DNA from: Octopus vulgaris
Lineage: Eukaryota
Assembly (NCBI GenBank): GCA_951406725.2
Contig: OX597814.1
Span: forward strand, 159,588,001-159,652,000
Length of the DNA: 64,000 bases
Reading direction: 5' to 3'
A program made the position numbers and the translations under genes. The notes beneath the pieces are model-generated. The model was given only the letters and a program-made list of their open reading frames with translations. It ran no database searches and was not told the origin of the DNA. Every line of letters starts with the position of its first letter. Position 1 is the first letter of the stretch. Below are positions 8,198-34,400 of this stretch, piece after piece.

Positions 8198-8235
8198 TAT
8201 ATAAAGCGGTAAGTTTCAACTGTAAATTATTACTT
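8198..8235 (+). promoter_or_regulatory. Candidate core promoter of reflectin gene 1 (TATA box plus initiator)
   Basis: TATATAAAG at 8198-8206; TTACTT Inr-like motif with A at 8232, 32 nt after TATAAA. Mirrors the gene-2 promoter. Confidence 0.6.
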
Positions 8236-8290
8236 TCGAGAACAACCGTTCTTGCCTGTTCTTCGCTCGCTTCAAACCTTGTTTGTTAAG
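8232..8290 (+). other. Predicted non-coding exon 1 (5' UTR) of reflectin gene 1; intron 8291-13315
   Basis: ATG-free ~59 nt ending at donor AAG|GTGAGA. The matching acceptor has branch point CACTAAT (13284-13290), a pyrimidine tract and TTTCAG| at 13315. Confidence 0.55.
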
Positions 8291-8809
8291 GTGAGACAAA
8301 TTTATTATTATTCTACAAAACAATTTATCGAAGCATAGTAAATCCTTCATAAATGATAAAACATATTCTTTTAAACTTTTATTGGGTGGAATTGCAAGAA
8401 TTCTATATGAATATATTTTATTCTTTACATTTTGCAAATATAAGGTCCAGTACATTCTAATCATGCATGTTTCCTTTCATAAATTAACTTCTCTCTTACA
8501 TTAGTTTGTTTTCAACTCAATTTCATAGTCGCTAGTTTGTAATTGATTCCTATTCAATAATAATGCATTTTAGTGACTTTTAACACACAAATTAACACAT
8601 AATTTTGATATTATCTAAACACATGATGCGCTCATAGACGCTAATTATTATAGGGGGGATAATTTCTTCTAGATTAAACTAAGTTGAGCCAAGTTTGAAA
8701 GTTTGGAATTTAGAGTAAAAAAATAACGAAGGGTACAGAGCATATACATTTAATTTGTTTTCTACACATTATAAATTTCTTAAAGTATCTACTCATTGAT
8801 AGCTATATT

Positions 8810-9415
8810 ATTTACATTCGACGGATATTTGCCCTCATTTTGTTTGTTACGTTTCGTCTGATATACCCTTCTGCTTCTTCAGGTGTCTTGGGGGAAATTT
8901 CGAACCTGGGTTCTCATTCCTAAGCTATTTTTTCGATATTATTATTATTATTATTATTGTTGTTATTGTTCATGTCACTGCTTGGAATCGAACTCGGAAT
9001 CGTGCAGCTAGTAGCCCGCGCTTTTAACCACTATGCCATATGTCCACGGGCATATGGCATAGTGGTTTTTTGATACCATCAAAGTAATTAAAATTACTAT
9101 GTTTAGCAAGTCATTTAATATAATGACTTGCTAAACATAGCTGTGGGCTTATGGCGTAGTGGTTAAGAGCGCGGGCTTCTAACCCCAAGATTCCGAGTTC
9201 AATTCCAAGCAGTGACCTGAACAACAACAACAATAATAATAATAAAAATAACAACAACAACAACATCGAAAAATAGCTTAGGAATGAGCACCCAGGTTCG
9301 AAATTTCCCCAAGACACCTGAAGCAGGCTGGAGGGTATATAAGCCGAAACGTTGTGTTAGCAACAAACAAGATGAGGACAAATATCCGTCGAATGTAAAT
9401 AATGATATACAACTG
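8810..9415. mobile_element. Head-to-head inverted dimer of a tRNA-headed, hammerhead-tailed element, with 16-bp flanking direct repeat
   Basis: Left arm is the reverse complement of the right arm. A box TGGCGTAGTGG (9152) and B box GTTCAATTCC (9197). CATTGATAGCTATATT at 8794-8809 and 9416-9431. Confidence 0.8.
9313..9358 (+). ncRNA. Minimal type-I hammerhead motif (one core substitution)
   Basis: GACAC-CTGAAGC-A-GGCT...AGCC-GAAA-CG-TT-GTGTT. The sister copy at 19583-19628 (-) has intact CTGAAGA and a GGCTG/CAGCC stem II. Confidence 0.6.
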
Positions 9416-9754
9416 CATTGATAGCTATATTTAGCATTATTTCATCCTCCTTTGGAATTGCCAACACAGCATAACTTGAGACAAATAAATTAAGCTAAAT
9501 TTAACATTTTACGAAGTGATGTATATCATCGAGTAAAGATAGGTCATAGTTTAAAAGAGATACTTGAGTTTTTTCTTCATTCTATATCGTGAATTGTTCA
9601 GCAATAGAGAAGAGAAGGGAAGAGAGAGAGAGAGAGATTTCTTACATGTAGTTTAACATTTCCATAGTATTTAAAAAATGGAAAACTTAAATTATTCAGC
9701 ATATTTTATACTACTTCATTAATATACGACCACAAAAACATCATTTACTTTCTC

Positions 9755-9866
9755 GTTTGCTTCCCAACCACATGTTTTCGGCTTTGCACTTTGGGTGTCT
9801 GCTATTGTAGCTTCAGGCCGACCAAAGTCTTGTGAGTGGATAGAAACTGAAAGACACCTGTCGTAT
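9755..9866 (+). mobile_element. Partial SINE family C, followed by (CATA)n to ~10135
   Basis: GGCCGACCAAAG..TTGTGAGTGGA..GAAACTGAAAGA matches 27846-28257. Confidence 0.65.
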
Positions 9867-9895
9867 ACACACACATACATACATACATACATACA

Positions 9896-9929
<34 letters not shown>

Positions 9930-10769
9930 CATACATACATACATACATACATACATACATACATACATACATGCATGCAGGCATACATACATACATACAT
10001 ACATACATACATACATACATACATACATACATACATGCATGCATGTATGCATGCATGAATGCATACATACATACATGCATGCATGTATGCATACATACAT
10101 ACATACATACATACCTACATACATACATACATACATTAAATAAAACGACAACAAGCGGAAAATATGAGATACCTGTATATATATGTACGAGCAAAACGCA
10201 CCACCCCCCGTCCAATGGACGGTGCTGAGTTGTCAAACATTTAAATTAAATTTTCTCAAAACAACTTGTCCGTATAGTGTGTGTAAAAAACATCCTGATG
10301 AGGGGAGTTTCAATTTTGATAATATGAAATATATCTGACACATCTCTGAAACTCTAAATCGTTAAATCTTTAAACTCTAAATCTTTAAATTTTTGTTATT
10401 TTCGGAGGTTTTTAATACGTCCTTTTAATGTTTCATCATCCCAAATTTTTAATTATACCAATATTTTATAACTTTTAAAATGTAAATTCACGGTGTTTTG
10501 TGTATAACACTGACTTATATCTATTTATATATATTTTTATATCTTTATATCTGGAATTTATACATCCGTTTTGTAAATGTGGAAGAATATATGAATATAT
10601 GAATATATGTATCTATTTGGTCTTCGAGTGTTGGTCTTAATTATGTTTCTCTAGTTTCCGCTTGCATTACCTCCGTTCAAATTAAGAAGTGAAATATAGT
10701 TCACTTGGAGCACTACAACTCCAGCCTGTAATTTTGCGAGTATTGTTAACTCTAGCAATCTCAAAATAA

Positions 10770-11800
10770 AGCAAGAAGCATAGGAGAGCGGGTAAATGAG
10801 CATTGGAGACAAATCAAGTAAGGTAAAAGCTCATCGATTCTGTACCAACACGCCGAACAGGAACACGGGGGATCAATCAATAACATAGAAATTAAAATAT
10901 TATCCACACATAGATCAGATGCAACAATTAGATAAATTACAGAAGCTACACACATAATAGAAAATAAACCTAGCCTGAATAGAAAACTAGAATGGAGCAC
11001 TAACACACACCACAACATATGACGATAGAGGATCCTGAAAACATAATAAATAAACAGATAAATAAACTAATAGAAATAAATAACTATATATATATATATT
11101 TTTTTTTTCGATTCGTTTTATTATTATTATTACTAGTATTGTTGTTATACATACATACATACAAGCATATGTAATGATAATAATAAATGGATGTAAACAC
11201 ATGAACAAAATAAGAATAAACAAAAACAACAAAAACAAAAAAACAAAATACAAATTACATGAAAATTACATGAACATATATAAACAGAAGATACAAATAT
11301 TACAGGCATCCCCCCACATACACACACTAAATAAACATAGACGCACATAGAGATATAAGCACGCGCAAATGAAGACATATAATAGAAATACAAAATGGCT
11401 GACGGTTAGTAAGGAGAGACACAAATAAGAAAGAAGAAAACAAAGGACCACTGATGCGGTCACAGGAGTGTGACGAAAGAACTCTGGCCGAAATAAGATT
11501 AAGATTAATGTAAAAATAAATAACACTGAAGCAAAATAACACCAAATATATAGTGCGTGTGTTTTTATTGGCTAAATGTGTGCATGTATGTTCCCTTTCT
11601 CTTTTTTAATTCTGAGTTAATTCTGACTGGCCACTTGCTTGGTAGCAAAGTTGTGAAGGAAAGCGTCTTGTTTTGTTTATTATCTTTAAATCTTAAGAAG
11701 GCCTTGCAAAATTTTATAGTCCCAGATATTGTGATCATTTGTAGTGTATGAAGAAGTTGTGTTCTCTCCCCGAGAACCAAGTTGAGCCATACTTTGCTCT
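10770..11800 (+). mobile_element. Penelope-like element 3' remnant: GIY-YIG endonuclease C-terminus plus tail with degenerate hammerhead
   Basis: Translation SRSIGERVNEHWRQIK*GKSSSILYQHAEQEHGG...IKILSTH...IR*ITEATHIIENKPSLNRKLEW (10770-11000). CCA-CTGATGC-G-GTCAC/GTGAC-GAAA-GAACTC-TGG at 11445-11489. Confidence 0.7.
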
Positions 11801-11846
11801 AGAGAGATTGATATGTAAATTATTGCTGCAATAACAAAAAAAGTAT

Positions 11847-12183
11847 GTGGAAGGCTCATGGCTCAGTGGTAAGAGCGTCGAACTTACGACCGTGAGGTTG
11901 TGAGTTCGAATCCTGGACCGGGCTGCGTGTTGTATTCTTGAGCAAAACACTTTATTTCACGTTGCTCCAGTTCACTCAGCTGTAGAAATGAGTTGCGACG
12001 TCACAGGTACCAAGCTGTATCAGTTTTTGCCTTTCCCTTGGATAACATCGGTGGCGCGGAGAGGGGCGGTTGGTATGCATGGGCGACTGCTGGTCTTCCA
12101 TAAACAACCTTGCCCGGAATTATGCCTCGGAGGATAACTTTCTAGGTGCAACCCCACGGTCATTCGTGACCAAAAGGGGTCTC
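11847..12183 (+). mobile_element. tRNA-derived SINE with CORE-like central domain (family D)
   Basis: TGGCTCAGTGG A box, GTTCGAATCC B box, then TTCTTGAGCAAAACACTT...CACTCAGCTGTAGAAATG. Related minus-strand copies at ~16835-17060 and ~32810-33295. Confidence 0.7.
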
Positions 12184-12492
12184 CGAATAATAAGTATAAA
12201 ACTTAAAGTGTACTTTGGGTATTGGATTTGTAAATCCCTTATTAATGATTCATAAATGTCCTCTTTCTTTTGTATCTTACTAACCACACTGATATCCAGA
12301 GGCAGCTAATTTCCAGAGCATGTTATTTCATCGTGGTCCCATACAACGATATGTGTTCGGTTGTGTTTTTATTTGGTGGCTGCTTTAATTTTTAAGTTTC
12401 ACCAATATTCTTTTAATCTATCGGTCACACTATAGCCAACTTCATCTGTTGGTGATTTCTTTTTTGTATGTGTGTATGTGTGTATACATACA

Positions 12493-12524
<32 letters not shown>

Positions 12525-12525
<1 letters not shown>

Positions 12526-12716
12526 GACGGAGATGTATTTGCATAGCAAGTGACCTGATCTGAGATCGTGTGCTGGAACGAAAACAATTGCAGCGTGAGA
12601 GGTGTTTATAAGCCATTTAAGAAACACACAATTTAAATTTAAATGTTAAAGTGAATCTAATGGTTTTTGTGTGTTTCTTAAATGGCTTATAAACACCATC
12701 CACGCTGCAATTGTTT
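12525..12716. mobile_element. Short microsatellite-embedded foldback element; second copy at 20713-20849
   Basis: ~50-bp inverted arms at 12582-12631 and 12667-12716; the same leader (ACGGAGATGTA...GACCTGATCTGAGATCG) precedes both copies. Confidence 0.7.
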
Positions 12717-12799
<83 letters not shown>

Positions 12800-13347
12800 G
12801 ATATATAGATGGGTAGATACATTCATACATACATAAATATACACATACATGTATATATATATTTATACATATATATGTATATATAGAGATATATGCACAC
12901 GCATACACATACATGAATATATATGTGTATATATTTGTTATGATATTAGAGTTGACTAGTTTATTTAACCAGTGATCAAAGCTTCATTTCTAAGGTTTAT
13001 TTAGCAGTGATACCTCATTAAAAAGTCAGCATGATCAGGTAGTAATTTGCTTTGGATGTAAAAGTTACAAGAAATGAAGTTTTAATATTTAAATTTCTTG
13101 TTGGTAGAATTCTTATAACAATCTAATGTTGAAAAAGCAAGTATAATGGTAGATGGTAGCATTTGCATAGGTAACAAAATATTACAAAGCGAGGTGAAAT
13201 AGATATGTATTTGAGCATAAGTATTGTATAAGCATTTAGACTCACAGAAAACCTTCAGAAAATAAATATCCTATTGTACTTTTCACTAATTCCTGCATTT
13301 ATCCTTCAATTTCAGACACAGAGTTTGGTAACCAATTCTCTTCCATC

Positions 13348-14466
13348 ATGTACGGGCACGGATACAACGGTAGAATGGAACCAATGCACATGATGTCAAT
13401 GGACTTCCAAGGCAGATACATGGATTCTTATGGAAGAATGGTTGATCCCAGATCCTATGGCTTCTATGGCAGATATCATGACCAAGACAGGTACTATGGT
13501 AGATCTATGTACAACTATCACGGTTTCCATGATTTCAATAGGTTCCATAGATTTGATTATTTCATGGATTTCCCAGATATGTTTATGGATATGTCCGGTT
13601 ATCAGATGGACATGTATGGAAGGTGGATGGACATGCACGGACACTACTCTAGCCCCTACTCCTACATGTTCAATTCTTCAAGACATGGCTACAACACTAG
13701 CTACTACAATGGTCGTTACGGGTTCTATCCAGAGAGATTCATGGACATGTCCCACTACCAAATGGACATGTATGGCCGATATATGGACAGAAACGGACGT
13801 CACTGTAGCCCATATAACAACTATTACAGGCGTTATATGAATTATCCATATATGAATTTCCTGCATATGTACCATCCCGAGAGATCCATGGATATGTCCC
13901 ATTACCAGATGGATTTTAATGGTCATTGGATGGACATGTATAATCATTACTCCCATCCTTTCTTTGGTCACAACCATTACTATAGGGGGAGCCACTACCA
14001 CAATTATTATCCCCACTCTAACTACAGCTGGGGACATAGATTTTACAACTACCCAGAAAGATACTTTGATATGTCCCACTACCAGATGGACTTCAATGGT
14101 CACTGGATGAACATGTATGGTCATGGCTATCAACCTTTCCATTCATTCAATGGCTCCAACGCTTATCACCATTCGGGTAACAGTTACAGTTGGGGACATA
14201 GGTACCACAACTATTACGACATGTTCAATGATATGTCCCATTACCAAATGGATTTCGACGGTAACTGGATGGACATGTACAATCAATACTCCTATCCTTT
14301 CTTTGGTTATAACCATTACCAAAGAGGGAGCCATTACTATAACTATTATCCCCACTATAACTACAACTGGGGACATAGGTTCCACGACTACCCAGAAAGA
14401 TTCTTTGATATGTCTCACTACGAGATGGACTTCAATGGGCGCTGGATGAACATGCACAGATTTTAA
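13348..14466 (+). CDS. REF: Reflectin (372 aa; His-rich; N-terminal motif plus 6 reflectin motifs)
   Basis: N-terminal motif MEPMHMMSMDFQGRYMDSYGRMVDP; repeats of PER[F/Y][M/F]DMS[G/H]YQMD[M/F]xG[R/H]WMD fitting M/FD(X5)MD(X5)MD; Y/M/R/H/N-rich; A at -3 of the ATG. Confidence 0.97.
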   Translation: MYGHGYNGRMEPMHMMSMDFQGRYMDSYGRMVDPRSYGFYGRYHDQDRYYGRSMYNYHGFHDFNRFHRFDYFMDFPDMFMDMSGYQMDMYGRWMDMHGHYSSPYSYMFNSSRHGYNTSYYNGRYGFYPERFMDMSHYQMDMYGRYMDRNGRHCSPYNNYYRRYMNYPYMNFLHMYHPERSMDMSHYQMDFNGHWMDMYNHYSHPFFGHNHYYRGSHYHNYYPHSNYSWGHRFYNYPERYFDMSHYQMDFNGHWMNMYGHGYQPFHSFNGSNAYHHSGNSYSWGHRYHNYYDMFNDMSHYQMDFDGNWMDMYNQYSYPFFGYNHYQRGSHYYNYYPHYNYNWGHRFHDYPERFFDMSHYEMDFNGRWMNMHRF

Positions 14467-14581
14467 TTTTGTAATCAGACAAACGACAAGACTTTTCGGA
14501 AGTTCTACTGGCTAATGTTAACTGGAAACCTGACACAGTTTTTTAACGTCCTCAGTAATCGGACACATTTAAATATATATC

Positions 14582-14625
14582 AATAAAATTTTGTTGCAAC
14601 ATATGAATATCTTGTGTTGTGTTTC
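14582..14625 (+). terminator. Polyadenylation signal of reflectin gene 1
   Basis: AATAAA at 14582-14587 followed by GT-rich CTTGTGTTGTGTTTC at 14611-14625. Confidence 0.65.
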
Positions 14626-15309
14626 AATATTTTCTTTACAATTTTGTTTAATTCGTAAAATAAAAAATAATCAATGTAAGACTGACTACTTTCATAAACT
14701 TATTAGAATTATATTTATTAAGGTAATTCAAGTTTCCTTTCTATCCAATTTGTTACCACTATATTTAAGTAAAGAAACCATAGTTTTATACGATATATAA
14801 ATTGTATTGCCATTAGTTTGCAACCGCAGGTGACAGACTTAGATTAATTTGAAATGTTTAATTGCTGCTTGAACTCCTTTACCTTTAGAAATTGAAGGAA
14901 TACGTTGTGACTTTTTAAACTTTCTACATCTTTTTGCTGATTATTAAAAGGTATGATCATTTTTTTTTACCAATGTGTTTTAACAAATAAAATGCAGCAA
15001 TTTTAGAGTCATTCAAAAAATACAACAGAGTTACTGCAATGATAATACAATGAAATGAAAAAGCAATTCTAGGAAGTAAGAATAATGGTCAGATAAAATC
15101 ACAGTAAAGAATATCTGAATAAGTGTTATTAAATTTGAAAGGGCGTCATAGTCACATCGTCGCTTTTTACTGTAGTTGTATATAAAATAGAAACGAACTG
15201 ATAAATTTGGTTTATATTTGGGATAAAAGTTACCAAATGTAATAAATGCTCTAAAATTAATTTACTAGCATTGAGCTTTTGATCATCTTCCGGATATTGA
15301 CTGAAGTGA

Positions 15310-15400
<91 letters not shown>

Positions 15401-15500
15401 ACACACATATATATATGTATATATATGTACATAGATACAAACATACATAAGCATGTGTGTGTGTGTGTGTGTGTTTCTGTGTGTGTGTGAGTGTGTGTAT
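15310..15500. repeat. (TATC)n plus (TG)n microsatellites
   Basis: Read directly. Confidence 0.95.
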
Positions 15501-17120
15501 ATAAATTGGTATCATTCATAGACCACACTTAAAGTAAGTCTGTTGGTTGTGGTTGGAGCTGAACTTTGTTTATGGGGGTGAAAATATATATCATATTACT
15601 TCAAAATATCATAGATAAAAGGTAAAAAATAAGTTTAATGTTGTATTTAGACATATTTAGTCACACGTATTACGTATTTGCTTTGTAATGGAGGAAAGCC
15701 AGTATATCAGTGATCATTTCAGTTGATACAGGAGCTATCTTGATAGTTCAAAAGCTGTTGTCTTGTCTATGGGTAATTAATATAATCGGACGATTAGCAA
15801 AGGCTTCTCCATTTATAATCGAAAGATTTTCTGATAATTGAAGCTTAGTTATATTTTTATTGAAATCTGCAAAAGTAAGGAAGTAAAGTTTTTAGCGATA
15901 TATGTAGTGAATCTTGCTTTATGCTGTAAAAAATAGACAATCTGCTATAGAAGATATGTCTGATACAGAAAGTACAAATGTATAGCGGTGGTTATGATTA
16001 AAGATAATGCGCTTGCAGACTTATAAGATCATTGCAATCTGTATAAAATACCGACTGGAATGTATATTTCACTTGTATTCATTGTGAGCAACCCGAATAT
16101 CAAAAATGCTGTAGATGGTACAAAAGTATCTATTTCAACTGAATGGTAATGCTGGCGAAGCAAGCCATGCAATTCAAATGATATTACAATGTTTATGAAA
16201 TAATTCATAGCAGACAATAAGTGGAAAGCTGCGTTTTTCTACAAGAAATAATCCGCAGAAGTGTAAAGCAGGAAAGGATTTGTGTGAGGGTGGATGTGCG
16301 TGTTTGGGAGTCCATATAAGTGAAACTGCATAAATTGTGTGTCCGTACAAATGAGACTGTATGAACTACGTTTATATCCATAAGTGTATATTTCTGTGTA
16401 ACGTCATCATTATGAAAGTAGGTTATCTGCCCGGGTACCACAAAGAAAGTAAAGGGACATTAATCCCTCATTGGTTAATAAAACCCTTATCACCTTCCAA
16501 TTAAATTGCTGGCAATGGTCTCTGTTCATAATTGGAAAGGAAGCCTTCTTTGAGGATACTCCATGGCTGCATGTATTCTCAAAATCTCCTCTAAACCCGA
16601 TCAAAAGAGATGAATTCTAATGACAACCTAAATAGATCGACGGGATTCTCTGTACTGAAGTAATCTACCCATTCCTACTATTTAGATTTTCGGTAAAATG
16701 ATGGAAAATAATTTTTGAAATGTGTTCTCGGAACTTAAACCCGTCAACAGCGTCAAAGCGCATATTAAAGAAAAACTATAACATTTTATCAGCATAACTA
16801 AAAAAAAAGAAAAAAAAGATCAAAAGTCCTTTACAAGCCTTCGGCGATTTCCCGGATTCTGTGACATATATTTGACTCCAGGACGGGACGCTAATCTATC
16901 GCAGGATTACTCATTTTTGCCAGCTGAGTAGACTGGAGCAATGTGAAATGGAGTGTTTATATCACAACAGCCGAACGAGAACATCGCCCGCTCTAGGAAT
17001 CGAAACCATAATCATATAATCATGAGTTCAACACTCTAACTACTAAGCCATGCGCCTCCAGTTCATCGTCATTCCAAGATATTCTGATCATACACCTTTT
17101 TAATTTAAAATACTTCCTTT

Positions 17121-17360
17121 AGGCGGCGAGCTTAGCAGAATCGTTACAGCACTGGACAAAATTCTTAGTGACATTTCTTCCAGCTTTGTGTTCTGAGTTC
17201 AAACATCGCCGGGGTCGACTTTGCCTTTCGTACTTTCAGCGTCGATAAAATAAGTACCATATGAACATTAGGGACGATATAATCGACTTATCCTCTCCCC
17301 CGAAATTGCTGGCCTCGTGCCGAAATTGCTGGCCTCGTGCCAAAATTTGGCACCAATTTA
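17121..17360 (+). mobile_element. SINE family B copy
   Basis: AGGCGGCGAGCT..GCAGAATCGTTA head and GTCGACTTTGCCTTTC core. Confidence 0.75.
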
Positions 17361-17644
17361 AAATGATTCCAATACAAAAAACTCTATGTCAAAAGTTGTT
17401 TCTTCGCCAAGAACAGAATATACTTCAACATAAACAGGTGGCAGGGAAGCGGCATGTTGAATTGTATCGTATATTCATAAGCACTTATTCTTGAACAAAT
17501 CCGAGAGAAAATAACGCCCAGCCTCTAACATTTCTAATTCTATATGAAAATTTTTTCCTTTCTCAGATGCAATCATAACAGTAGAGAAATAATCCATTCA
17601 TAAGTGTGGTCCTACAGAGTAGTATATATATATATATATATATA

Positions 17645-17830
17645 TAGTTAATTCAAACAAGAAAACACAAAAAAACACAATAACGCGAGGACGTGGAACA
17701 AATATAGTATTATTGGACGCTCAGGAAAGAAGGAAAGAAGGAGGGTTTAACGTTTCGAGCGGAGCTCTTCGTCGGAAACATAGGAGAAGGAAAGATCCAG
17801 AGAAGGGAAGACAGGAAAAAAATCGCCAAT
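17645..17830 (-). mobile_element. (TA)n-embedded short element with hammerhead motif (17745-17779); near-identical opposite-strand copy at 54243-54450
   Basis: GTTT-CCGACGA-A-GAGC-TCC-GCTC-GAAA-CG-TT-AAAC is identical in both copies. Confidence 0.75.
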
Positions 17831-17928
17831 ATATATATATATATTTTTTTTTAATAAAAGGGTTAAATTAATTAATTAATTAATTAATTAACTAATCAAT
17901 TAATATATATATATATATATATATACAA

Positions 17929-18154
17929 GGCGGCGAGCTGGCAGAAACGTTAGCACGCCAGGCGAAATGCGTAGCCGTATTTCGTCTGCCGTTACGTTCT
18001 GAGTTCAAATTCCGTCGAGGTCGACTTTGCCTTTCATCCTTTCGGGGTCGATAAATTAAGTACCAGTTACGCACTGGGATCGATGTAATCGACTTAATCC
18101 GTTTGTCTGTCCTTTTTTGTCCCCTCTGTGTTTAGCCCCTTGTGGGTAGTAAAG

Positions 18155-18158
<4 letters not shown>
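17929..18158 (+). mobile_element. Full-length young SINE family B copy ending in (AT)n
   Basis: GGCGGCGAGCTGGCAGAAACGTTAGCACGCC...GAGTTCAAATTCC...TAGTAAAGAAAT; near-identical to 26308-26538, 51495-51727 and 56581-56812. Confidence 0.85.
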
Positions 18159-18205
<47 letters not shown>

Positions 18206-18209
<4 letters not shown>

Positions 18210-18625
18210 ATGTTACATTACTCGGTAGTCAAGATAAAACTCTGAGTTTCAGATGCCGAAGTGGAAATCCACAACACCATCTCTTCGGTTATCTGGCTAT
18301 TTGAAAACGTTATGAAAAAATACCGTTAAAAATGAAGGGAAATTACTCTGTTATAACTCTGCTTTGCCTGCGTACTTATACATCGCTCGCATTTTTCGTC
18401 ATAAAAATTATATAAAAATACATAAAAATATATAAAAATATATAAAAATATATAAAATCTTCTTGGGACATAACACAGAAAGCATGTTCTATCCGTTTTC
18501 TTTAGGGGACCAAAAACGTAACAGAAATTTAGTCACATGTGGGCATGATCCGAAAAGCTCTGTCCTTGTATTTAGACATGTGGTAGGGAGGTCTCTTTCT
18601 TTCTTTTGTTATCTTACCGTTTTAT

Positions 18626-18630
<5 letters not shown>
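18206..18630 (-). mobile_element. (TA)n-embedded element with hammerhead-like motif (18233-18293)
   Basis: Minus strand: GATAA-CCGAAGA-GATG...CATC-T-GAAA-CTCAGAG-TT-TTATC. A related foldback remnant lies at ~50200-50347. Confidence 0.55.
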
Positions 18631-18690
<60 letters not shown>

Positions 18691-19526: not shown

Positions 19527-19680
19527 GCATTATTTACATTATTTACATTTGACGTATATTTGTACTCGTCTTGTTTGTTGCTAACACAAAATTTCGGCTG
19601 ATATACTCTCCAGCCTTCTTCAGGTGTCTCGGAGAAATTTCGAACCTGGGTTCTCATTCCTAAGGTATTTTTCGATGTTG

Positions 19681-19748
<68 letters not shown>

Positions 19749-19828
19749 GAGGTCACTGCCTGGAATCGAACTCGGAATCTTGGGGTTAGTAGCCCGCGCT
19801 CTTAACCACTACGCCTATACCTGTGGGC

Positions 19829-19897
<69 letters not shown>

Positions 19898-20072
19898 TCG
19901 ATAAATACCTTAGGAATGAGAACCCAGGTTCGAAATTTCCCCATGATACCCGATGAAGGCTGGTGGGTATATCAGCCGAAACGTATTAACAACAAACAAG
20001 ATGACAAATATCCGTCAAATGTAAATAATGTAAATAATGCACATAATTCCTCATCTCTTAAATATAAAACTG
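19527..20072. mobile_element. Second head-to-head inverted dimer of the tRNA-headed hammerhead element
   Basis: Same family as 8810-9415. Hammerheads at 19583-19628 (-) and ~19945-19990 (+); internal (AAT)n; right arm ends in AACTG, as in the first copy. Confidence 0.8.
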
Positions 20073-23706: not shown

Positions 23707-25225
23707 TACATACATACACCCGCATATATACATACGGATATGTTAGTATAATATAATATAATATAATATAATATAATATAATATAATACATGCACATACG
23801 AGGTAAAAGTACTTAATACGAAGAGTTGAGTGACAGCAAATTTTGCATAAGTTGAAACTTCCCTAGTGCAACTCTGAGTGTTGCTTCTCGGCTCGTTCGG
23901 CTGTTGTGATATAAAGTAGAACGTTCCCTTATTTTCATATAATTTGGATATGTGAAAGCTGCATATAACAGTGTATCTGTATAAAATTATATAAAGGGAT
24001 ACAAATTCATAGAAGCAGCGCGGATATTGTGATGTACTGAGCAAGTTGAAAGCAATTCTATTGTCTTATTACTGTAATGCAATATACAATTGTACGTTAT
24101 ATATGTTTAGTGAAAATAAATTTATGAGTCTCAAAAGAGATGCGAGTCTGGAATTTCTATTCTCTGGGACTGAATAAAATTTCGCTCTTTTATGAAAGGC
24201 ATAAACCAAAAGATCTTGAAAACTGGTTATATGTTTTCGTATGGCTAAAATTTTGCATCATAATCGCGCGAATGAGTATCTTATCAAATACATAGCGTTG
24301 TGTGGTTGCACAAAAAATACAACAAATACAGTAATATTTGTACATGTATACATATTTTTATTGCAGTTTCTTTTTACATTTTTATCAACTTCAGTGCATA
24401 TACCTGTCCGGTGATGGAAATAATTGTTACAGTGATATAAAATAACAACTTACGAGTTACATAAAGCAAAAGTTCGAAGTGATTATCTGTAGAAAGTATA
24501 CTCTAACAGGATGAAAGTGAATTATATTTTACTTTTGAAAGAAAAGGAGCGAAAATTACATAATTTGATAGGAAATGGTAGAAATAATTTACTGCTTTAA
24601 GTATTCATTCAGATAAGAACACGTATAGTTTTGAGAGAGTCTGACCGAAAATGTTCCATCAGAAATAGATGAAAGGTGGTATAAATATAATACATAAATT
24701 GCAAAATGACTCGAGTCTGTAATTTCTTCGAATGTTGCAAATTGGCTTACGGCTGTAAGATGTGCATCCGGTCATGTACCAGTGTTCGTGCAACTTATTG
24801 AAGTAACGCAGTGCATACATGGAAACGAATGATTCACAAACTGTATAACTCGAATGTAGTTGTGGTTAGATGTTGGTTGTTGTGGTGATTGCTGCAAGGT
24901 CGAGATGTGAAGCGAAATTAAATAGTCGACGCATGTATTGACTCATAAACTGTATAGTTGGAGAGAGCGTTTGTATCGTATCCGATAAGCTTCGTAGCTG
25001 GTGATTCCGGAACTTACTGCTGTTGGTAAAAGAGTTATCGAGAGTTAGTGATAAAAATTCTTGAATGTTAATTGACTTGTTCTACAGACAACATACAACA
25101 AAACCAGTTGCAGGACAGTTCGGTAAAGAAGCGTCAGTCTGTGGGGATGCGAAAGACTCTGAAATAGAAAGCTGGTAACTAATTCTAGCTATGTGATGAC
25201 TTCGACTTTGATCGAATAAATACAG

Positions 25226-25295
25226 CAGTGGTCCCCAAACCTTTTATTTAAATGAATTTTCCTACGGACCCCTTTTAATATGCTTATCCTTATGT

Positions 25296-25361
<66 letters not shown>

Positions 25362-25471
25362 GTGTGTGCGTGCGTGTATATATATTTGAAATTTTGAATT
25401 TAGTTCACGGACCCCTAGCACTACATTTGCGGACCACCAGGGGTCCGCGCACCCTAGGTTGGGAACCACTG
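25226..25471. mobile_element. hAT-type MITE with internal (TG)n
   Basis: TIRs CAGTGGTCCCCAA / TTGGGAACCACTG and a perfect 8-bp TSD AAATACAG (25218-25225, 25472-25479). Confidence 0.9.
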
Positions 25472-25598
25472 AAATACAGAGGTACATTTTACTAACTACT
25501 ACATTGAAAGTCAACAATAATTAAATGTAGTTTATACTAATATAACCATAGAAGATGCGTCAAACCCTAGTTAAAGTTTAACAAGAGGAAAAAGAATG

Positions 25599-25636
<38 letters not shown>

Positions 25637-26307
25637 TGTATGTGTGTGTGCGCGCGACGCATATATATATAAACATATGCATTTATATATATATTGTACC
25701 GTGTGAGTTGTATAATATATATATATTAGAAAAATTGCCCAAGCAGCTTAAAAAGAATGGTGAATTCTGTAATGATAAACGTAACATTTTCAGTCGTTCT
25801 GGAGATGAGGAAAGTTTATCAAATTACTTTCATCTCGGGGGAAGGGAGACTCTGGGAAAGGATTTCTTCAGAGCATGATCAGAAGAAGAATGCCAATTTA
25901 TAAATTAGCTGAGTTGCAGAACGTAGTTATTTTATGTCGCGGAGAGCAAAATGCTTTTGCAATCTCCTGGCTCATTGCTGCAGATCTTGCCTTATTAGCA
26001 TTATAACAGCTTCTGGTGTTGCTATGTCCGCTTTTGTTCGTCAATTAACTTTTTCTAAAGCATATCCGAATTCTGTTTATTTACACAGTTTTTACTGGTA
26101 AAAATTGCAAAAACAGATGTGTTCTTCTCAGCAGATTAAGTCAATAACAAAGATACGACACGTCAGTTTGTGATTGGCTGGAACACTACAAAGAGGCTAT
26201 TTCTTTTAGTTATGTAAAAGAAATCGCATGACATAACAAAGTATTGACATAAAACAAATGTGTTTAAAAGCGAAATAATTCATTACCAATATACACTGCA
26301 ATTCGTA

Positions 26308-26538
26308 AGGCGGCGAGCTGGCAGAAACGTTAACGCGCCAGGCGAAATGCGTAGCCGTATTTCGTCTGTCGTTACGTTCTGAGTTCAAATTCCACCGAAG
26401 TTGACTTTGCCTTTCATCCTTTCGGGGTTGATAAGTAAAGTACCAGTTACGCACTGCGGTCGATATAATCGACTCAATCCCTATGTCTGTCCTTGTTTGT
26501 CCCTTCTATGTTTAGCCCCTTGTGGGCAATAGAGAAAT
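26308..26538 (+). mobile_element. SINE family B copy
   Basis: Near-identical to 17929-18158. Confidence 0.85.
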
Positions 26539-26940
26539 ATATACTCTGCAATTCATCAGTTCAAAACACCTGATGTGGTCGTTGATCAATTAAGAGTAGT
26601 TCAAATCTTAAGCAGATTGCAAACTGCCACAACTATCTTTGTTCATAATAATTTTCAACTTTAATTCTAAATGAAGCAATTTTATAGTAGCAAACATTTT
26701 CCGTAAGAATGTAGGCAATGAGTATCGTTCTCGCCACATTAACAAATTGCTAGATGTAATGCCGTTGCTGATACACAAATCAAAAATGCTGGTGTGAGTT
26801 ATTATCGCTGATACACCTCGAGTGTAGTTATCTTTTTTTTATGTAAGCGATTTGCTAATTTGCATGGCGAATAACCAGTTGTACATGGTTAAGTGTTTAC
26901 TTTCATTGTCTCTCTGTCTGTGGTTTTATCACTCTCTCTT

Positions 26941-26994
<54 letters not shown>

Positions 26995-27165
26995 ACTTGT
27001 TTTGTCTGTCCCCCTATCGTCCCCTCTTTTTCTCAACTTCATGGTTATTAAAGAAATTCTCTCAGTCTCTTTTTCTCTCTCTTTTTCTATCTCTCTCTTT
27101 TACTCTTTCTCTTTCTTTCTCTCTCTCTCTCTTTTTCTCTCTGTCTGTCTGTCTGTCTGTCTGTC

Positions 27166-27228
<63 letters not shown>

Positions 27229-27533
27229 CTTTCTCTCTCTCTCTCTCTCTCTATCTATCTCTTTCTCTCTCTCTCTCTCTCTCTCTCGCTCGTTCGCTTG
27301 ATCGCTCGTTGTGCGCATAATTCACCAGTATCATCAGAAAGACAAGCTACTGTTACTTTCATTAAATGTATCAAAGTATTACAACTTGATTCGGATTGCC
27401 TTGTAAGAACTCACACCGATAATATAAACGATATTACATATCACATCCTCTAAGAACGACTTATTTGAGTTGGTAAAAAAAATTGCACAGAAGCGGCGTA
27501 ATCGAGATAATGTTTAATATGATTTTGTGTATG

Positions 27534-27584
<51 letters not shown>

Positions 27585-27683
27585 AAGAAAGAGAGAGAGA
27601 GTGTGTGTGTTTCTATGTGTGCGTCTGGATGTGCATGCAAGTATGTCCATGTGTGTATGCATATATATACATATATAAATAAA

Positions 27684-27748
<65 letters not shown>

Positions 27749-27757
27749 GTATATGTA

Positions 27758-27820
<63 letters not shown>
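26941..27820. repeat. Cluster of (CA)n, (CT)n, (CTGT)n, (GA)n, (TA)n and (TATC)n microsatellites
   Basis: Read directly. Confidence 0.9.
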
Positions 27821-27845
27821 AATAAAAGTTCAAATAAAGGTTACA

Positions 27846-28257
27846 AGGCGCAGGAGTGGCTGTGGGGTAAGTAGCTTGTTTACCAACCACATGGTTCCGG
27901 GTTCAGTCTCACTGCGTGGCACCTTGGGCAAGTGTCTTCTACTGTAGCCTCGGGCCGACCAAAGCCCTGTGAGTGGATTTGGTAGACGGAAACTGAAAGA
28001 AGCCCGTCGTATATATGTATGTATATATATATATGAGTGTGTGTGTGTCTGTGTTTGTCCCCCTACCATTGCTTGACAACCGATGCTGGTGTGTTTATGT
28101 CCCCGTTACTTAGCGGTTCGGCAATAGAGACCGATAGAATAAGTAAGTACTGGGCTTACAAAAGAATAAGTCCCGGGATCGAGTTGCTCGATTAAAGGCG
28201 GTGCTCCAGCATGGCCGCAGTCAAATGACTGAAACAAGTAAAAGAGTAAAAGAGTAA
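27846..28257 (+). mobile_element. Full-length SINE family C
   Basis: GGCGCAGGAGTGGCTGTG..GGTTCAGTC head, internal (TA)/(TG) tract, tail CCAGCATGGCCGCAGTC...(AAGAGTA)2; minus-strand copy at ~50915-51316. Confidence 0.85.
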
Positions 28258-28386
28258 ACCTCAATAAGGGATAATAAAATCAAAAGTATACACTGGTTTA
28301 TTACCTATTACAAGAAGTGTTGAATATTACAATTAATATTCAACTGTAAGGTAACTGGATACACCGGGATTTATATATATATATTT

Positions 28387-28625
28387 AAGAAAATAAGAAA
28401 ATAGAGTGATAATTAAATTGATTATTATTTATGAATTATAACAAAGGACATCATCTCTGACAGCTGTTACAATTCAAGACTTTTAGAAATTAATTAGAAT
28501 AATTAAAAACACTTTAAAGCTGAATTTCATCGGAGATGACTAAAGATATACCATCAGATTTCCATGTTCCAGTGAGTTGAGTGTACGGCTCCAAACCGTA
28601 TATCTCTCTATTTTCTTATTTTCTT
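28387..28625 (-). mobile_element. Short element with 20-bp terminal inverted repeats and a degenerate hammerhead (28451-28539)
   Basis: AAGAAAATAAGAAAATAGAG / CTCTATTTTCTTATTTTCTT. Minus strand: TCATCT-CCGATGA-AATTC...GAATT-GTAA-CAGCTG-TC-AGAGATGA. Confidence 0.55.
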
Positions 28626-29710
28626 ATATACATGTATATATAATAATTACGTGTAAAGTACATGTTATCATTTGAATATGATTCATTAATCGCATTTGAA
28701 CAATCAGACGAATTTGACGTGTGTAAGAAACTTTAAGTAATGAATGAGTGAATCGTTCTCTCAATACATAAATTATGCAGTTTGTACTAAGTACTGTTCT
28801 CTTGTACATTTAAATATATGTACGTATGAGCGTATGCATTTATGTGTGTGTTTGTGTGTATTTATGCATTTCTTTACAGACGTAAGAAAAAAGGAAAAGC
28901 TGATCTTAACGTTATTGTTATTCAAACCGCTCTATATTTGTATGAAGGTAGGAAACATCCTACTAAATTTAGAATGCTACAGGATATATTGATGACAACT
29001 TTATGGAAAATGGTGGATTAAACCAGGTTACTGTTTCTTCCCGACTCTAAATGAAGATGCTTCTAATATACTTTTTGATAAATCTTCTTGATATTTCTTC
29101 TTCTCTCTGTCTCTCTTATTCGCGTTCTGTCTGAGTATGCTTTTGCAATCTGTTGGCTCATTGCTACGGATATTGCCTTATTAGAAAATACACACACGTA
29201 AGTGTGTGTATCTGTATGTGTGTTCGTGTATACGTGTATGCGAACCTGTGATCGTGACTGCGTTCGTGCTTGCCCGTGTAAAGCAGGACATTGCTTAAAA
29301 TGTTTAACCCCATGATCCATTAAATGTAGATTGATAAATATTACTAGACTAAAATAAGTGGTGAGTTACATATGATCGAGTAAAGAGTACAGGGCACCAG
29401 TCTGACGACAGTTCAATGATTGAAGCCAATGAAAGAATAGAAAAAGAAAGTAGCAAATATACAAATATAGCAGAATAAAAAATATAAGACAATTCACTCG
29501 ATAACTCGAATTTATTTGTATGCAATTCACATTACAAAGATTTGTTGTATCCTTCTTAACAAATGAAAGCGTTTTCACACCAACGTCCTTTCTATCAATA
29601 TTATTGTTACTATTACACTGTTCATCAAGTATCAAAGCTATTTTTTGTTGTTCATCACGATGTTACTGCCTATTATATCTGCAAAAATTATTCAGAGTTA
29701 TAGAGTAATT

Positions 29711-29716
29711 TTTATT
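29711..29716 (-). terminator. Candidate poly(A) signal of reflectin gene 2 (alternative at 29511-29516)
   Basis: AATAAA on the minus strand ~95 nt after the stop codon. Confidence 0.4.
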
Positions 29717-29810
29717 AGTTATGATCTGCTTTACGTATTGAATTCAGAGTAATTTTCAAACGAGAAAACGACTGCCATCAACAACAGTTGGTCGATAAAT
29801 GGCACTATGT

Positions 29811-31280
29811 TTAATAGTTGTAATTATCCCAAGAAGAGTAGAAATTCTGACCATCCATCCAACGGCCATCGAAATCCATTTGATTATTGAACATATCAAA
29901 GTTTCTTTCTGGATAGTCGTAATACCTCTGTCCCCAGTTGTAGTTGTAGTAGTTTGGGTAAGAGTTGTAATAGTGCCTGTTATGGTAGTTATAGCCATGG
30001 AAATTACGGCCATAATTATCCATCCAACGGCCTTCAAAATCCATCTGATAATTTCCCATATCAAAGTATCTCTCTGGGTAGTTGTAATATCTTTGGCCCC
30101 AGCTGTAGTTATAGTAAGGATAGTTATGGTGGTATCTGCCATGGTAGTTGTAGAAGGGGCTAGAATAACGGCCATAATTATCCATCCAACGTCCTTCAAA
30201 ATCCATCTGGTAGTTTCCCATATCAAAATATCTTTCTGGGTAGTTGTAATATCTTTGGCCCCAGCTGTAGTTATAGTAAGGATAGTTATGCTGGAATTTG
30301 CCATGATAACTGTTGAAGGGGCTAGAATAACGGCCATAATTATCCATCCAGCGTCCATCAAAATCCATCTGGTAGTTTCCCATGTCGAAATATCTCTCTG
30401 GGTTGTTGTAGTATCTTTGGCCCCAGCTGTAGCTATGATAAGGGGAGTTATGTTGGAATCTACCGTGGTAGTTATAGAAAGGTGTGCAATGACGGCTATA
30501 CGTATCCATCCAACGACCATCAAAATCCATTTGATAGTTTCCCATATCAAAATATCTCTCTGGGTAGTTGTAATACCTTTGGCCCCAGCTATAGTTATAA
30601 TAAGGGTAGTTATGGTAGTATCTGCCATGATAACTGTAGAAGGGGCTAGAGTGACGACCATAATTATCCATCCAGCGGCCATTCATGTCCATCTGATAAC
30701 CAGACATATCCATGAATCTCTCGGGATAGTACATATGAAGGAAATTCATAAATGGACAATTCATATAACGCCTGTAATAGTTGTAATAAGGGCTACAGTG
30801 ACGTCCATATCTGTCCATGTATCGGCCATTCATGTCCATTTGGTAGTGGGACATGTCCATGAATCTCTCAGGATAGAACCAGTTGCGACCATAGTGGTAG
30901 CCGGGGTAGTAACCATGTCTTGAAGAGTTGAACATCTGCCAGTGGGGGCTGGAGTAGTGTCCTTGCATGTCCATCCATCTTCCATACATGTCCATCTGAT
31001 AACCGGACATATCCATAAACCTCTCAGGGAAGTCCATGAAATTACCATATCTATGGAACCTATCGTTATCATAGAAACCGTAATAGTTGTACATAGATCT
31101 ACCATAATATCTATCATTATCAGAATATCTGCCATAGAAGCTGTAGCATCTGGGATCTACCATTCTTCCATAAGAATCCATGTATCTGCCTTGGAAGTCC
31201 ATGGTCATTCTGGACATTGGTTCCATGATACCACGGTATCTTCTGCTGAAATTATTTCTTCTGCTCATGTATCTGTTCAT
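29811..31280 (-). CDS. REF: Reflectin (489 aa; canonical MNRYM start, N-terminal motif plus 8 reflectin motifs)
   Basis: MNRYM...MEPMSRMTMDFQGRYMDSYGRMVDPR; eight PERxxDMxxxQMDxxGRxMD motifs; tandem 54-aa units. Confidence 0.98.
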   Translation of the reverse strand: MNRYMSRRNNFSRRYRGIMEPMSRMTMDFQGRYMDSYGRMVDPRCYSFYGRYSDNDRYYGRSMYNYYGFYDNDRFHRYGNFMDFPERFMDMSGYQMDMYGRWMDMQGHYSSPHWQMFNSSRHGYYPGYHYGRNWFYPERFMDMSHYQMDMNGRYMDRYGRHCSPYYNYYRRYMNCPFMNFLHMYYPERFMDMSGYQMDMNGRWMDNYGRHSSPFYSYHGRYYHNYPYYNYSWGQRYYNYPERYFDMGNYQMDFDGRWMDTYSRHCTPFYNYHGRFQHNSPYHSYSWGQRYYNNPERYFDMGNYQMDFDGRWMDNYGRYSSPFNSYHGKFQHNYPYYNYSWGQRYYNYPERYFDMGNYQMDFEGRWMDNYGRYSSPFYNYHGRYHHNYPYYNYSWGQRYYNYPERYFDMGNYQMDFEGRWMDNYGRNFHGYNYHNRHYYNSYPNYYNYNWGQRYYDYPERNFDMFNNQMDFDGRWMDGQNFYSSWDNYNY

Positions 31281-32809
31281 ACTGGATATTAGTAGTGATC
31301 TGAAATATATATAAAAAAAGATGTTTCAATAATGGAAAAAAGTTAATTTTACAAACTAATGAAATAATAACTATACAATAAATGTTTGTATCACATACTT
31401 GACTAGTCGTAATTAACAGCTTACCTAAAATATATTAACCCTATTAATTTGCTGAAATTTTTTAATATAATAGATAAATAAATACTGGGATTGATTTTCA
31501 AGCTCTTTCTAAAGTTAACAGCTAAAGAAATGTAATTAAAAGTATTATAGTCGAAAACTGAAACGAGATTGTTCACTGATTGATGTTCATTGTATTATAA
31601 AGTGAGAAATATTTCATGAATGCCAAACTCGAATTAAATAGCATACAAAACTGACATTATATTCAGAAAAGCATTTGGTTTTTCTACATCATGGTTTGAA
31701 AGCTTACGAAAGCTACAATTTAACTATACTGTGAGACTAACTTAAACGTTAAATCGTCCCTTACAAGTAAAATTAATATATTTTACATTTAAAGGATTCA
31801 ATCACGAAGCTTTCGTTATATGAATAGAGTTTGGAATATATAACAACAACTATCTAGAATAACAGTCGCAATTTATAGAAGGAAAGTTATGTTGCATTAG
31901 TATTTTCATATACTACATATTTTCATGTACTTCTTCTTCAAATGCTCATGTAAACATATAAAAAATACGTTTATAAGTAATTACGTCTTGGACTGGTTTC
32001 TTGCTTATTAAGAACAGAATTTGTTATTTCACAGTGTTCACTCGAGATAACTAAGAATCAAGATAACTAAGACGAGATAAGATTAAAATTGTGATTCGTG
32101 AATAATTGAATATTTTTGTTGTTTTATGTTATTAAGAGCACAGTGATTCTAGAATTCTACTCAAGGCCTTCTCATTTCTCATAATGTTGTCACTTGTCAA
32201 TTTTTTACTAATAAGCGGCTGAACGAATGCTTATTGTCTTAACTACAAATAACTCCTGGAGTTTCATGCTAATTTAGACAAAAGTTTCTCTGAGCTATTG
32301 TTGTCTATTGCCTACCCAGAGAAAAATTCTCCTAAAACCACAGCCTAAACACTTGTGGAAAGAGAGAACCCATTAGGTAAAGCAGTTCGACATACAGGTC
32401 ATGAATAGAATTCCTTTGATCATTGGTACAAAATATCAACAATAGCAACAACAATAACAACAAACGAATTCTGTACTTAAAAGACAGAATATATGAATTA
32501 GTAATATACTGCTATTTATGTCATCAACCATGAAGAAACGATCCAAAAGAGAGCTTCTGTATTATTACCCGCCCAGTTAAAATGACAACTAAACTTTCCC
32601 CAAACACCCCTTACCATCTCATTAGAAGATACATTAGCTAATGTCACCAAAAGTATTATAGGTGTATCTACTTATCAGGGCTTATGTGGGACCGAAACAA
32701 CAAAAGAACGGTCGCCCTCAAGAAAAAAAAAAAAAAACGGGATGAAAAATAAACACTACATCAATAAGACAACGTAATGGACTTAGAACTTATAGAAACC
32801 CCAGGAATC

Positions 32810-33295
32810 ATAAAGCCAGAACACCGCCTAGGTTCCATGGCATATAATTGAATAAGGTTGCAATATTCTTTCCTGAACGGAATACCGGTCCATCGCAGGA
32901 TTAACTTCCAAACTATTGTTGGAACTTATTTACAGCTGAGTGGACAGGAGCAGCGTGAAAGGAAGTGTTTTACTCAAGAGCACAATGCATTGCATACTCC
33001 AGGAATCGAAACCACAATTTTCTTTTCTACTCTAGGCACAAGGGTCGAAATTTTTAGGGAGAGGTCAGTCGATTAGATCGACCCCAGTACGCAACTGGTA
33101 CTTAATTTATCGATCCCGGAAGGATGAAAGGGAAAATCGACCTCGGCGGAATTTGAACTCAGAACGTAACGGCAGACGAAATACCGCTAAGCATTTCGCC
33201 CGGCGTGCTAACGTTTCTGCCAGCTCGCCGCCTTATCGAAACCACAATTTTACGATCGTGCATGTAATACTCTATCCTGTAGGCCACGTGCCTTC
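32810..33295 (-). mobile_element. Old SINE family D copy with a nested young SINE family B insertion (33022-33234)
   Basis: 17-bp TSD ATCGAAACCACAATTTT at 33005-33021 and 33235-33251. Confidence 0.8.
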
Positions 33296-34304
33296 ATTAA
33301 AGTAAATGTATGACCTTAAATAAAGCAAGAGGGGAAAGCTATAGTAGATTTTGATCAAGCCTAGTACTTTTTTAGATACACATTTTATGAAACCTATCCA
33401 GTTTTCTCAGGATTAAAATTCTGTGTTTCTGCCATTCCACTGCATAGATGTGTTGTGGAAACATTGATGAAACAATAACGTCCTAGTAAAATACAAGGGT
33501 TTCGTTATGTCATAGGGTGTTTAATCGTACAGTTCTTATATTTGGCCGAAGTAACAGATCGCATTCGGTTAACACAGAAAAATCAGTATAGATTTAGTAG
33601 AAACATCATTTTACCACAATATGTAGAATACAATATATATAATTACACAACATATATTACATTTTCAACAAAAAATACTTTCTGTTTATGATATTTCTTT
33701 ATCAAATGAAACTACAAATAGATGAATGAAAAAATGTAAATCATGACGAAACTGAATGCTTTAAAAGTAAAAAAAGATATATAAATATTATTGAAATTAC
33801 AACAATGTAGTATTTAGATTTTGGAGGAATCAAAATTGATTTCAAGAATCAAATGCCTCAATGGTATCTTTGGTTTACATAGTACCATGTTCCTTAGACA
33901 TCAAAGACGCTTTAATATTATGACTGTTAGAATATGGTTTTTAACACCAAGTACAAAGTGAAAATATTTTGTATTTACTGGTATATGGACCATTTGCATA
34001 AATATGCAAATATTCATTCAATATGTGAACCATCTTATGAATAATTGGCAATTTTTAAAGGACCTTATTAGAAATATAGTTTTAAAAAATATTCAAATAG
34101 CAGTATCAGAATGTGTATTGGCATTGAAATTCAAACATTATTCCTCGACTGTTACTCAGTTGGTTCAATACAATTTATAATTAGTTAAACAAGAGATGCC
34201 CTAATTCAAGAATTAAAACTTTTTAGCAATATATATAAAAATAAATAAATGAAACAAAATTTGTGGAGAAAAAAATTGAAGAATTGCTTTTAAAACAAAC
34301 TCAC

Positions 34305-34365
34305 AGACTGAAGAACAACCTTAGCTTCTGCTTACGCTAGTAGGACAGAGATGTGGTTCTCAACT
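34305..34365 (-). other. Predicted non-coding exon 1 (5' UTR) of reflectin gene 2; intron 31300-34304
   Basis: Starts at the TCAGTT initiator, is ATG-free and ends at donor TCT|GTGAGT. Acceptor TTTTTTTATATATATTTCAG| lies 19 nt before the ATG. Confidence 0.65.
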
Positions 34366-34400
34366 GAGACAAACTTTCTAACTTACAATCCCTTTATATA
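34362..34400 (-). promoter_or_regulatory. Candidate core promoter of reflectin gene 2 (TATA plus Inr)
   Basis: TATATAAAGGG at 34400-34390 and a consensus Inr TCAGTT (A at 34365) ~33 nt downstream. Confidence 0.7.

Follow-up and report, generated by a model that had tools for sequence, protein, structure and literature searches.

Where does transcription of an octopus reflectin gene begin, close to its start codon or kilobases away from it? The question is raised by a 64,000-nucleotide (nt) stretch of Octopus vulgaris DNA (assembly GCA_951406725.2, contig OX597814.1, positions 159,588,001 to 159,652,000 of the forward strand), hereafter the window, with its first letter as position 1. Two reflectin genes with uninterrupted coding sequences (CDSs) lie within it, gene 1 on the plus strand and gene 2 on the minus strand. 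An earlier note on this DNA had proposed that both hide an intron in the 5' untranslated region (UTR), so that their true promoters, of a shared architecture, would lie kilobases upstream. For gene 2, the predicted junction (34305>31299) was deduced by arithmetic from sequencing runs and is almost certain, and gene 1 is likely spliced in the same way (8290>13316). Overall, the best explanation, and quite a probable one, is that both genes are spliced from short non-coding exons located at predicted TATA plus initiator promoters.

Splicing of the gene 2 leader

A run search with the coding exon of gene 2 yielded 24 runs, 20 of which contained at least half of its words (seven studies, all as contigs and none catalogued as RNA). 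Four of these 20 (X1, X5, X15 and X17, from four studies and under four organism labels) were aligned to positions 27900-37000 at 85% likeness. The read sets used shared 88-95% of sampled 31-mers. The run type of the four aligned runs was recorded as 'RNA?' or '?', and their transcript origin was deduced from the pattern of cover: six of the nine wholly intronic bins of gene 2 had zero depth in all four, which therefore are not genomic DNA and behave as spliced transcripts. Two further intronic bins with depth overlapped a dispersed repeat at 32923-33240, and the intronic bin 32460-32763 had a low, unexplained depth in three runs.

In all four runs, the longest 5' contig aligned with no more than one mismatch up to exactly 31299, the predicted start of exon 2, which follows the acceptor TTTCAG|31299 and lies 19 nt upstream of the start codon at 31280. 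Past this position, 55 (X1), 22 (X5), 51 (X15) and 88 (X17) letters were left over, in contigs with depths of 70.5, 25.8, 9.06 and 14.1, respectively. Multiplying depth by leftover length (58 letters for X17) and dividing by the 304 nt of bin 34284-34587, which contains the predicted first exon, gave 12.75, 1.87, 1.52 and 2.69, compared to observed bin depths of 13.6, 1.87, 1.52 and 2.69. The leftover letters hence explained the exon-bin depth exactly in three of the four runs. The donor itself was located in X17, in which a 30-letter loose end sits behind 34362; the other 58 letters (88 - 30) span 34362-34305 and, as they end at 34362, place the donor at 34305. For gene 2, the reads support the splicing that the earlier note had suggested looking for in them.

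The structure of gene 2 on the minus strand is as follows. Its read-supported non-coding exon 1 (34305-34365) measures 61 nt if transcription starts at the initiator A of 34365, its 5' end being a prediction, and ends with the donor TCT|GTGAGT (34305|34304). The 5'-UTR intron (31300-34304; 3005 nt; GTGAGT...TTTCAG) has the GT-AG ends of a spliceosomal intron and is removed upstream of the ATG. Exon 2 opens with 19 untranslated nt (31281-31299), visible in both the sequence and the contigs, and the resulting spliced leader of about 80 nt is devoid of ATG. At the other end, the 3' UTR (29493-29810) contains an AATAAA at 29516, and contigs end between 29493 and 29552. A donor-like GTAAGC at 34335 (minus strand) inside exon 1 was bypassed in X17 for the GTGAGT located 30 nt further on. 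One X1 contig of 212 nt matched exactly at 28845-29056, about 450 nt past the main 3' end, and could represent read-through, a longer 3' UTR or DNA carry-over.

Upstream of exon 1, a predicted TATA box, TATATAAAG (34392-34400), is followed after 5 nt by GTAAGTT (34380-34386). The initiator TCA(+1)GTT, with its A at 34365, lies 33 nt after TATAAA, and GAGAAC is found at +5 (34361-34356). Assuming that all four contigs use the donor at 34305, their inferred 5' reach would be 34362, 34359, 34355 and 34326 (+4, +7, +11 and +40), a weak hint for a start at 34365. Both the gene 1 and gene 2 start sites remain predictions because contigs cannot show a cap, and that of gene 2 very probably coincides with the predicted initiator. 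The 30 loose letters of X17 had no match in the window (best 10 nt); they are likely a chimeric end, and may also belong to an outside exon or an added leader.

Predicted first exon and intron of gene 1

On the plus strand, the same arrangement is found 5.0 kb upstream of the gene 1 start codon. The predicted TATA box, again TATATAAAG (8198-8206), is followed after 2 nt by GTAAGTT (8209-8215), between TATA and initiator, which matches six of the seven positions of the downstream TFIIB recognition element (BREd) and also resembles a splice donor. An initiator-like TTA(+1)CTT has its A at 8232, 32 nt after TATAAA, and GAGAAC is located at +7 (8238-8243). The predicted non-coding exon 1 (8232-8290; 59 nt) would end with the donor AAG|GTGAGA (8290|8291), and the predicted 5'-UTR intron (8291-13315; 5025 nt; GTGAGA...TTTCAG), with a branch-point-like CTAAT 30 nt before its 3' end, would end at the acceptor TTTCAG|13316, 32 nt upstream of the start codon at 13348. 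Of the acceptors within 600 nt upstream of this ATG, it has the strongest pyrimidine tract (12 of 15). With the untranslated start of exon 2 (13316-13347; 32 nt), the predicted spliced leader would reach about 91 nt, also devoid of ATG.

A promoter directly before either ATG is unlikely from sequence, as no TATA box occurs there except the AT run inside the acceptor tract of gene 2, the sole one in the stretch before that ATG; the 350 nt before the gene 1 ATG contain none. Gene 1 is likely spliced from the exon about 5.0 kb upstream, as only two of the 116 TATAAA sites of the window have an initiator, an ATG-free exon and a donor, and the gene 1 model as a whole, predicted by parallel with gene 2, is considered highly likely.

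Every element of both motif sets in the earlier note was found where it had placed them, including the acceptors 32 and 19 nt before the ATGs and the ATG-free exons of about 60 nt with GTGAG donors. Its hidden 5'-UTR intron is backed by reads for gene 2, with the acceptor in four of four runs and the donor at 34305 in X17, and is likely for gene 1.

The predicted intron of gene 1 contains a palindromic element resembling a miniature inverted-repeat transposable element (about 8804-9415), with long inverted arms and flanked by a 16-nt direct repeat (8794-8809 and 9416-9431); a related copy lies near 19535-20032. The 56 nt at its centre (9067-9122) copy DNA upstream of gene 1 (8073-8128) at 98% and are followed by a 19-nt fold-back, which looks like a local DNA capture upon insertion. 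In a gene 1 pre-mRNA, the arms could pair.

Frequency of the shared promoter motifs relative to chance

The frequency of the motif set of the two predicted promoters was compared to random expectation. The full motif pattern, derived from the two sites tested, had two matches in the window, and none of 100 dinucleotide shuffles reached two. A looser rule, chosen after sight of the two sites, required TATAAA, a generic initiator 27-34 nt on and a GTRAG donor 30-150 nt further, without ATG. It retained two of the 116 TATAAA sites on both strands, at 8200 (plus) and 34398 (minus), both upstream of a reflectin on the same strand. Upstream of gene 1, there are 13 TATAAA sites on the plus strand, of which that at 8200 alone combines an initiator with a donor. 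Among 1500 Markov sequences of 13.3 kb, the looser rule was satisfied in 107 (order 2) and 53 (order 4), and in one sequence at each order when the two hexamers shared with the gene 2 site were added. The 9-mer TATATAAAG occurs four times in the window, and the pair TATATAAAG..GTAAGT is expected 0-0.025 times per window.

When the two upstream regions were simply aligned, no conserved block appeared apart from dispersed repeats common to both. The architecture is hence shared at the motif level, as a TATA box and an initiator plus two hexamers of putative function; the corresponding claim stands for motifs at like positions and fails for alignable similarity, with a score of 37 against a null of 39 (see next Section). 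Three metagenome stretches matching the DNA pattern were rejected as chance occurrences, being bacterial-looking, gene-dense contigs without reflectin or similarity to the window.

Counter-evidence and rival explanations

Several results weigh against the model of two spliced leaders with related promoters. The joint 34305>31299 was obtained by arithmetic and was not among the 15 joints listed (431 further ones being unlisted), because dispersed repeats filled the joint table at 85% likeness. The donor of gene 2 is fixed to the base in X17 only; the leftovers of X1, X5 and X15 are placed only within the 304-nt bin, which includes two other donor-like sites (34386 and 34335). In X1, the depth of this bin exceeds the contribution of the one contig by an unexplained 0.85 units, and the four runs carry the ambiguous codes given above. 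Concerning gene 1, five donors in 7000-13315 outscored 8291 on a crude U1 match, including GCG|GTAAGT at 8209; this score is weak, since the read-supported donor of gene 2 also falls outside its top 15. The gene 1 initiator misses TCAKTY at two places and fits only YYANWYY, an older form of the initiator consensus. Regarding the promoters, the alignment score of the gene 2 core promoter with the gene 1 site (37) was not above chance (best score elsewhere upstream of gene 1, 38; mean best score in 100 random 13.3-kb sequences, 39). The pair ranked only 289th (global) and 1675th (local) of 6670 TATAAA pairs, and a BREd with at most one mismatch follows 40 of the 116 TATAAA sites.

Four rival explanations were considered. 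Gene 2 may be as described while gene 1 uses another first exon or donor (e.g. GCG|GTAAGT at 8209), the set at 8198 being a coincidence or a relic. The gene 1 junction is predicted from sequence, other donors outscore 8291, the promoters align at chance level, and a site with initiator and donor arose in 53-107 of the 1500 random sequences, all of which suits this explanation. It is nevertheless unlikely: 8200 is the sole site of the 13 upstream of gene 1 with both features and the only other of the 116 that shares two hexamers with the gene 2 promoter (joint null, 1 in 1500), and the exon lengths are similar (59 and 61 nt). If, instead, the 60-nt exon of gene 2 were internal, with the real promoter further upstream, the sequence TTTGTCTCAG just before 34363 would be an acceptor rather than an initiator. 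It looks acceptor-like, X17 has 30 more letters 5' of 34362, and the contigs, as noted, are silent on a cap. These 30 letters, however, find no counterpart in the window and are joined at 34362, one base off the AG, while the leftovers of X1, X5 and X15 (55, 22 and 51) all fit within the 61-nt exon length and a TATA box lies 33 nt upstream, making an internal exon very unlikely.

Least probable of all, to the point of being nearly negligible, is that the joined form of gene 2 is a processed DNA copy (retrocopy) instead of spliced RNA. The run codes would allow it, but the six intronic bins and bin 35500-35803, which genomic DNA would cover, were empty in each of the four runs, cover ceases close to the AATAAA at 29516, and a retrocopy would itself require spliced RNA. 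The last explanation is compatible with the exon model and concerns the hexamers: the promoters would lie where predicted and consist simply of TATA and initiator, and GTAAGTT and GAGAAC would be functionless, either there by chance or neutral leftovers of the duplication. Its probability falls a little short of one half. Thirteen of 5151 pairs of TATAAA sites that are not of low complexity share two such hexamers at similar offsets, no alignable similarity surrounds GTAAGTT and GAGAAC, and there are two examples only; on the other side, the two hexamers persist at matching offsets where the flanks do not align, and the low expected number of TATATAAAG..GTAAGT pairs speaks for more than chance. 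The chances of a functional role for GTAAGTT and GAGAAC are set at about even. With its position ahead of the predicted start, GTAAGTT would work at the DNA level.

Proposed mechanism of expression

According to the preferred model of two spliced leaders, transcription of each gene would begin at a focused promoter with a TATA box and an initiator, located 5.0 kb (gene 1) and 3.0 kb (gene 2) upstream of its start codon. TFIID would bind TATATAAAG and the initiator, and polymerase II would start at A34365 (gene 2) or A8232 (gene 1). The spliceosome would then remove a GT-AG intron of 3 kb in gene 2 or, at the predicted junction, 5 kb in gene 1, and the remaining leader, about 80 and 91 nt long, respectively, would contain no ATG. 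Scanning ribosomes would initiate at the first ATG, in exon 2, before the uninterrupted open reading frame (ORF), and the gene 2 transcript would end near the AATAAA at 29516. This layout likely goes back to the gene whose duplication gave rise to the cluster. In the weakest step of the mechanism, GTAAGTT and GAGAAC would be retained core-promoter contacts, with GTAAGTT possibly serving as a BREd site for TFIIB.

A more speculative extension, considered improbable, is that all coleoid reflectins derive from one gene, in which a CDS of proposed bacterial-transposon origin came under a captured host promoter and non-coding exon and was domesticated there, with TATATAAAG, GTAAGTT and GAGAAC as a reflectin-wide selected signature that outlasted alignable similarity. 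If true, this core-promoter signature could help to identify genes of reflector cells, and to drive their expression, in cephalopods at large. The present basis for a reflectin-wide 5'-UTR intron consists of two paralogues and closely related read sets. A bacterial origin of reflectin has been proposed, according to a review (PMC9779258); the intron bears only lightly on it, because the reflectin CDS is still unbroken.

Reflectin ORFs of the window

The window has a G+C content of 35.5%, abundant microsatellites and three long ORFs rich in methionine and tyrosine. Those of gene 1 (13348-14466, plus strand; 372 amino acids) and gene 2 (29811-31280, minus strand; 489 amino acids) are uninterrupted, and the third, gene 3 (62685-63989, minus strand; 434 amino acids), extends to 64000, where it is cut by the window end. 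Gene 3, absent from the earlier note, is most of a reflectin, with its upstream region outside the window. Its true start likely lies six codons before 63989, just past the window end, since an O. bimaculoides relative has six extra N-terminal residues in the same frame. A contig of run X17 matched 63976-64000 and continued, which implies that the gene 3 leader measures about 64 nt or more.

Reflectins are described, in a review (PMC9779258), by an N-terminal motif (MEPMSRM(T/S)MDF(H/Q)GR(Y/L)(I/M)DS..), a repeated motif (M/FD(X)5MD(X)5MD(X)3/4) and an abundance of tyrosine, methionine, arginine and tryptophan with scarce alanine, isoleucine, leucine and lysine. By sequence, all three ORFs are reflectins on each of these counts. 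The N-terminal motif, in a relaxed pattern, was located at residue 19 in gene 2, at residue 13 in gene 3 and, with substitutions, at residue 10 in gene 1. The repeated motif was present in three strict copies in gene 1 (five relaxed), eight strict copies in gene 2 and seven in gene 3. The four abundant residues accounted for 39%, 43% and 31% of genes 1, 2 and 3 (42% in Sepia officinalis reflectin 1), and the four scarce ones for 0.5%, 0.6% and 3.7% (0.7% in S. officinalis reflectin 1). A further attribute of reflectins is the location of the protein in reflective platelets. The 3' half of gene 2 (29853-30699) is a tandem repeat of 162 nt (5.2 copies, 82% match), each unit of which corresponds to one reflectin motif and a linker.

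A protein search with gene 2 gave five matches (2917 candidates), including Argonauta, Octopus bimaculoides and S. officinalis reflectin 1, the latter with 56% identity over 280 amino acids, while gene 3 shared 91% identity with an O. bimaculoides protein. None of the three window proteins had a Pfam match above the curated cut-off, none of their exact sequences was present in the protein collection searched, and the 232 pattern matches of a reflectin profile in metagenome contigs included no confirmed relative. In its source, one clear O. bimaculoides reflectin (XP_014779611.1) bears the name 'TBC1 domain family member 5 homolog A', and further ones are labelled 'uncharacterized'. In addition, contigs of X15 and X17 at 30402-31034 differed from gene 2 at 12 of 180, 19 of 171 and 25 of 231 letters and fitted neither gene 1 nor gene 3 by mismatch count; they likely stem from at least one further expressed reflectin paralogue outside the window.

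Significance and comparison with known systems

A 5'-UTR intron is ordinary biology, and the value of the result is practical, since candidate reflectin promoters can be placed with single-base precision. The starts of two octopus reflectin transcripts now have base-level candidates, one of them backed by reads, which are useful for reporter constructs, CRISPR interference (CRISPRi) and the assay for transposase-accessible chromatin (ATAC). At least one genome paper regards reflectins as single-exon genes; a promoter fragment cloned, on that view, from the 1-2 kb ahead of the start codon would consist of intron. The suggestion of the earlier note that such promoters would serve as iridocyte-specific drivers overreaches, a core promoter not being a cell-type driver; according to two reports, reflectins also occur in chromatophore sheath cells (PMC6397165) and in the olfactory organ and optic lobes (bioRxiv 10.1101/2022.03.28.485983). 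No reflectin promoter or UTR intron was described in the titles or abstract openings of the papers retrieved, nor mentioned in the available portions of PMC10329180, PMC6962438, PMC13218726, PMC9068888 and PMC9779258; public gene models, possibly with this exon, fell outside that scope.

Compared to other cephalopod reflectin clusters (O. bimaculoides XP_014779611.1 and XP_014779614.1, Argonauta, and S. officinalis reflectin 1), the genes of the window have the same N-terminal motif, repeats and composition, and are likewise clustered in both orientations. The argonaut genome paper calls reflectins 'single exon genes' (PMC9635652), in contrast to the two exons of octopus gene 2.

Among focused promoters with a TATA box and an initiator, the same TATATAAAG is found. 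The Drosophila consensus given in a section of PMC5580651 is TCA+1GTY for the initiator, with the first T of TATAWR at -33 to -28. TATAAA begins at -32 in gene 1 and -33 in gene 2, at the upstream edge of this range. The gene 2 initiator, TCA+1GTT, matches both TCA+1GTY and BBCA+1BW, whereas that of gene 1 lacks the central CA and is degenerate by comparison. GTAAGTT agrees with six of the seven positions of the BREd (RTDKKKK, immediately after the 8-nt TATA), but is located 3 and 6 nt after it, and GAGAAC at +5/+7 has no counterpart among the core-promoter elements described in that section.

The overall layout is a familiar one. A 5'-UTR intron is reported in about 35% of human genes (PMC2864569), and large insect genomes commonly have distant core promoters (PMC8011201). 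The same short ATG-free exon, GT-AG intron and ATG in exon 2 characterize genes whose first exon is non-coding, and the octopus reflectin genes described here do not differ from them in kind.

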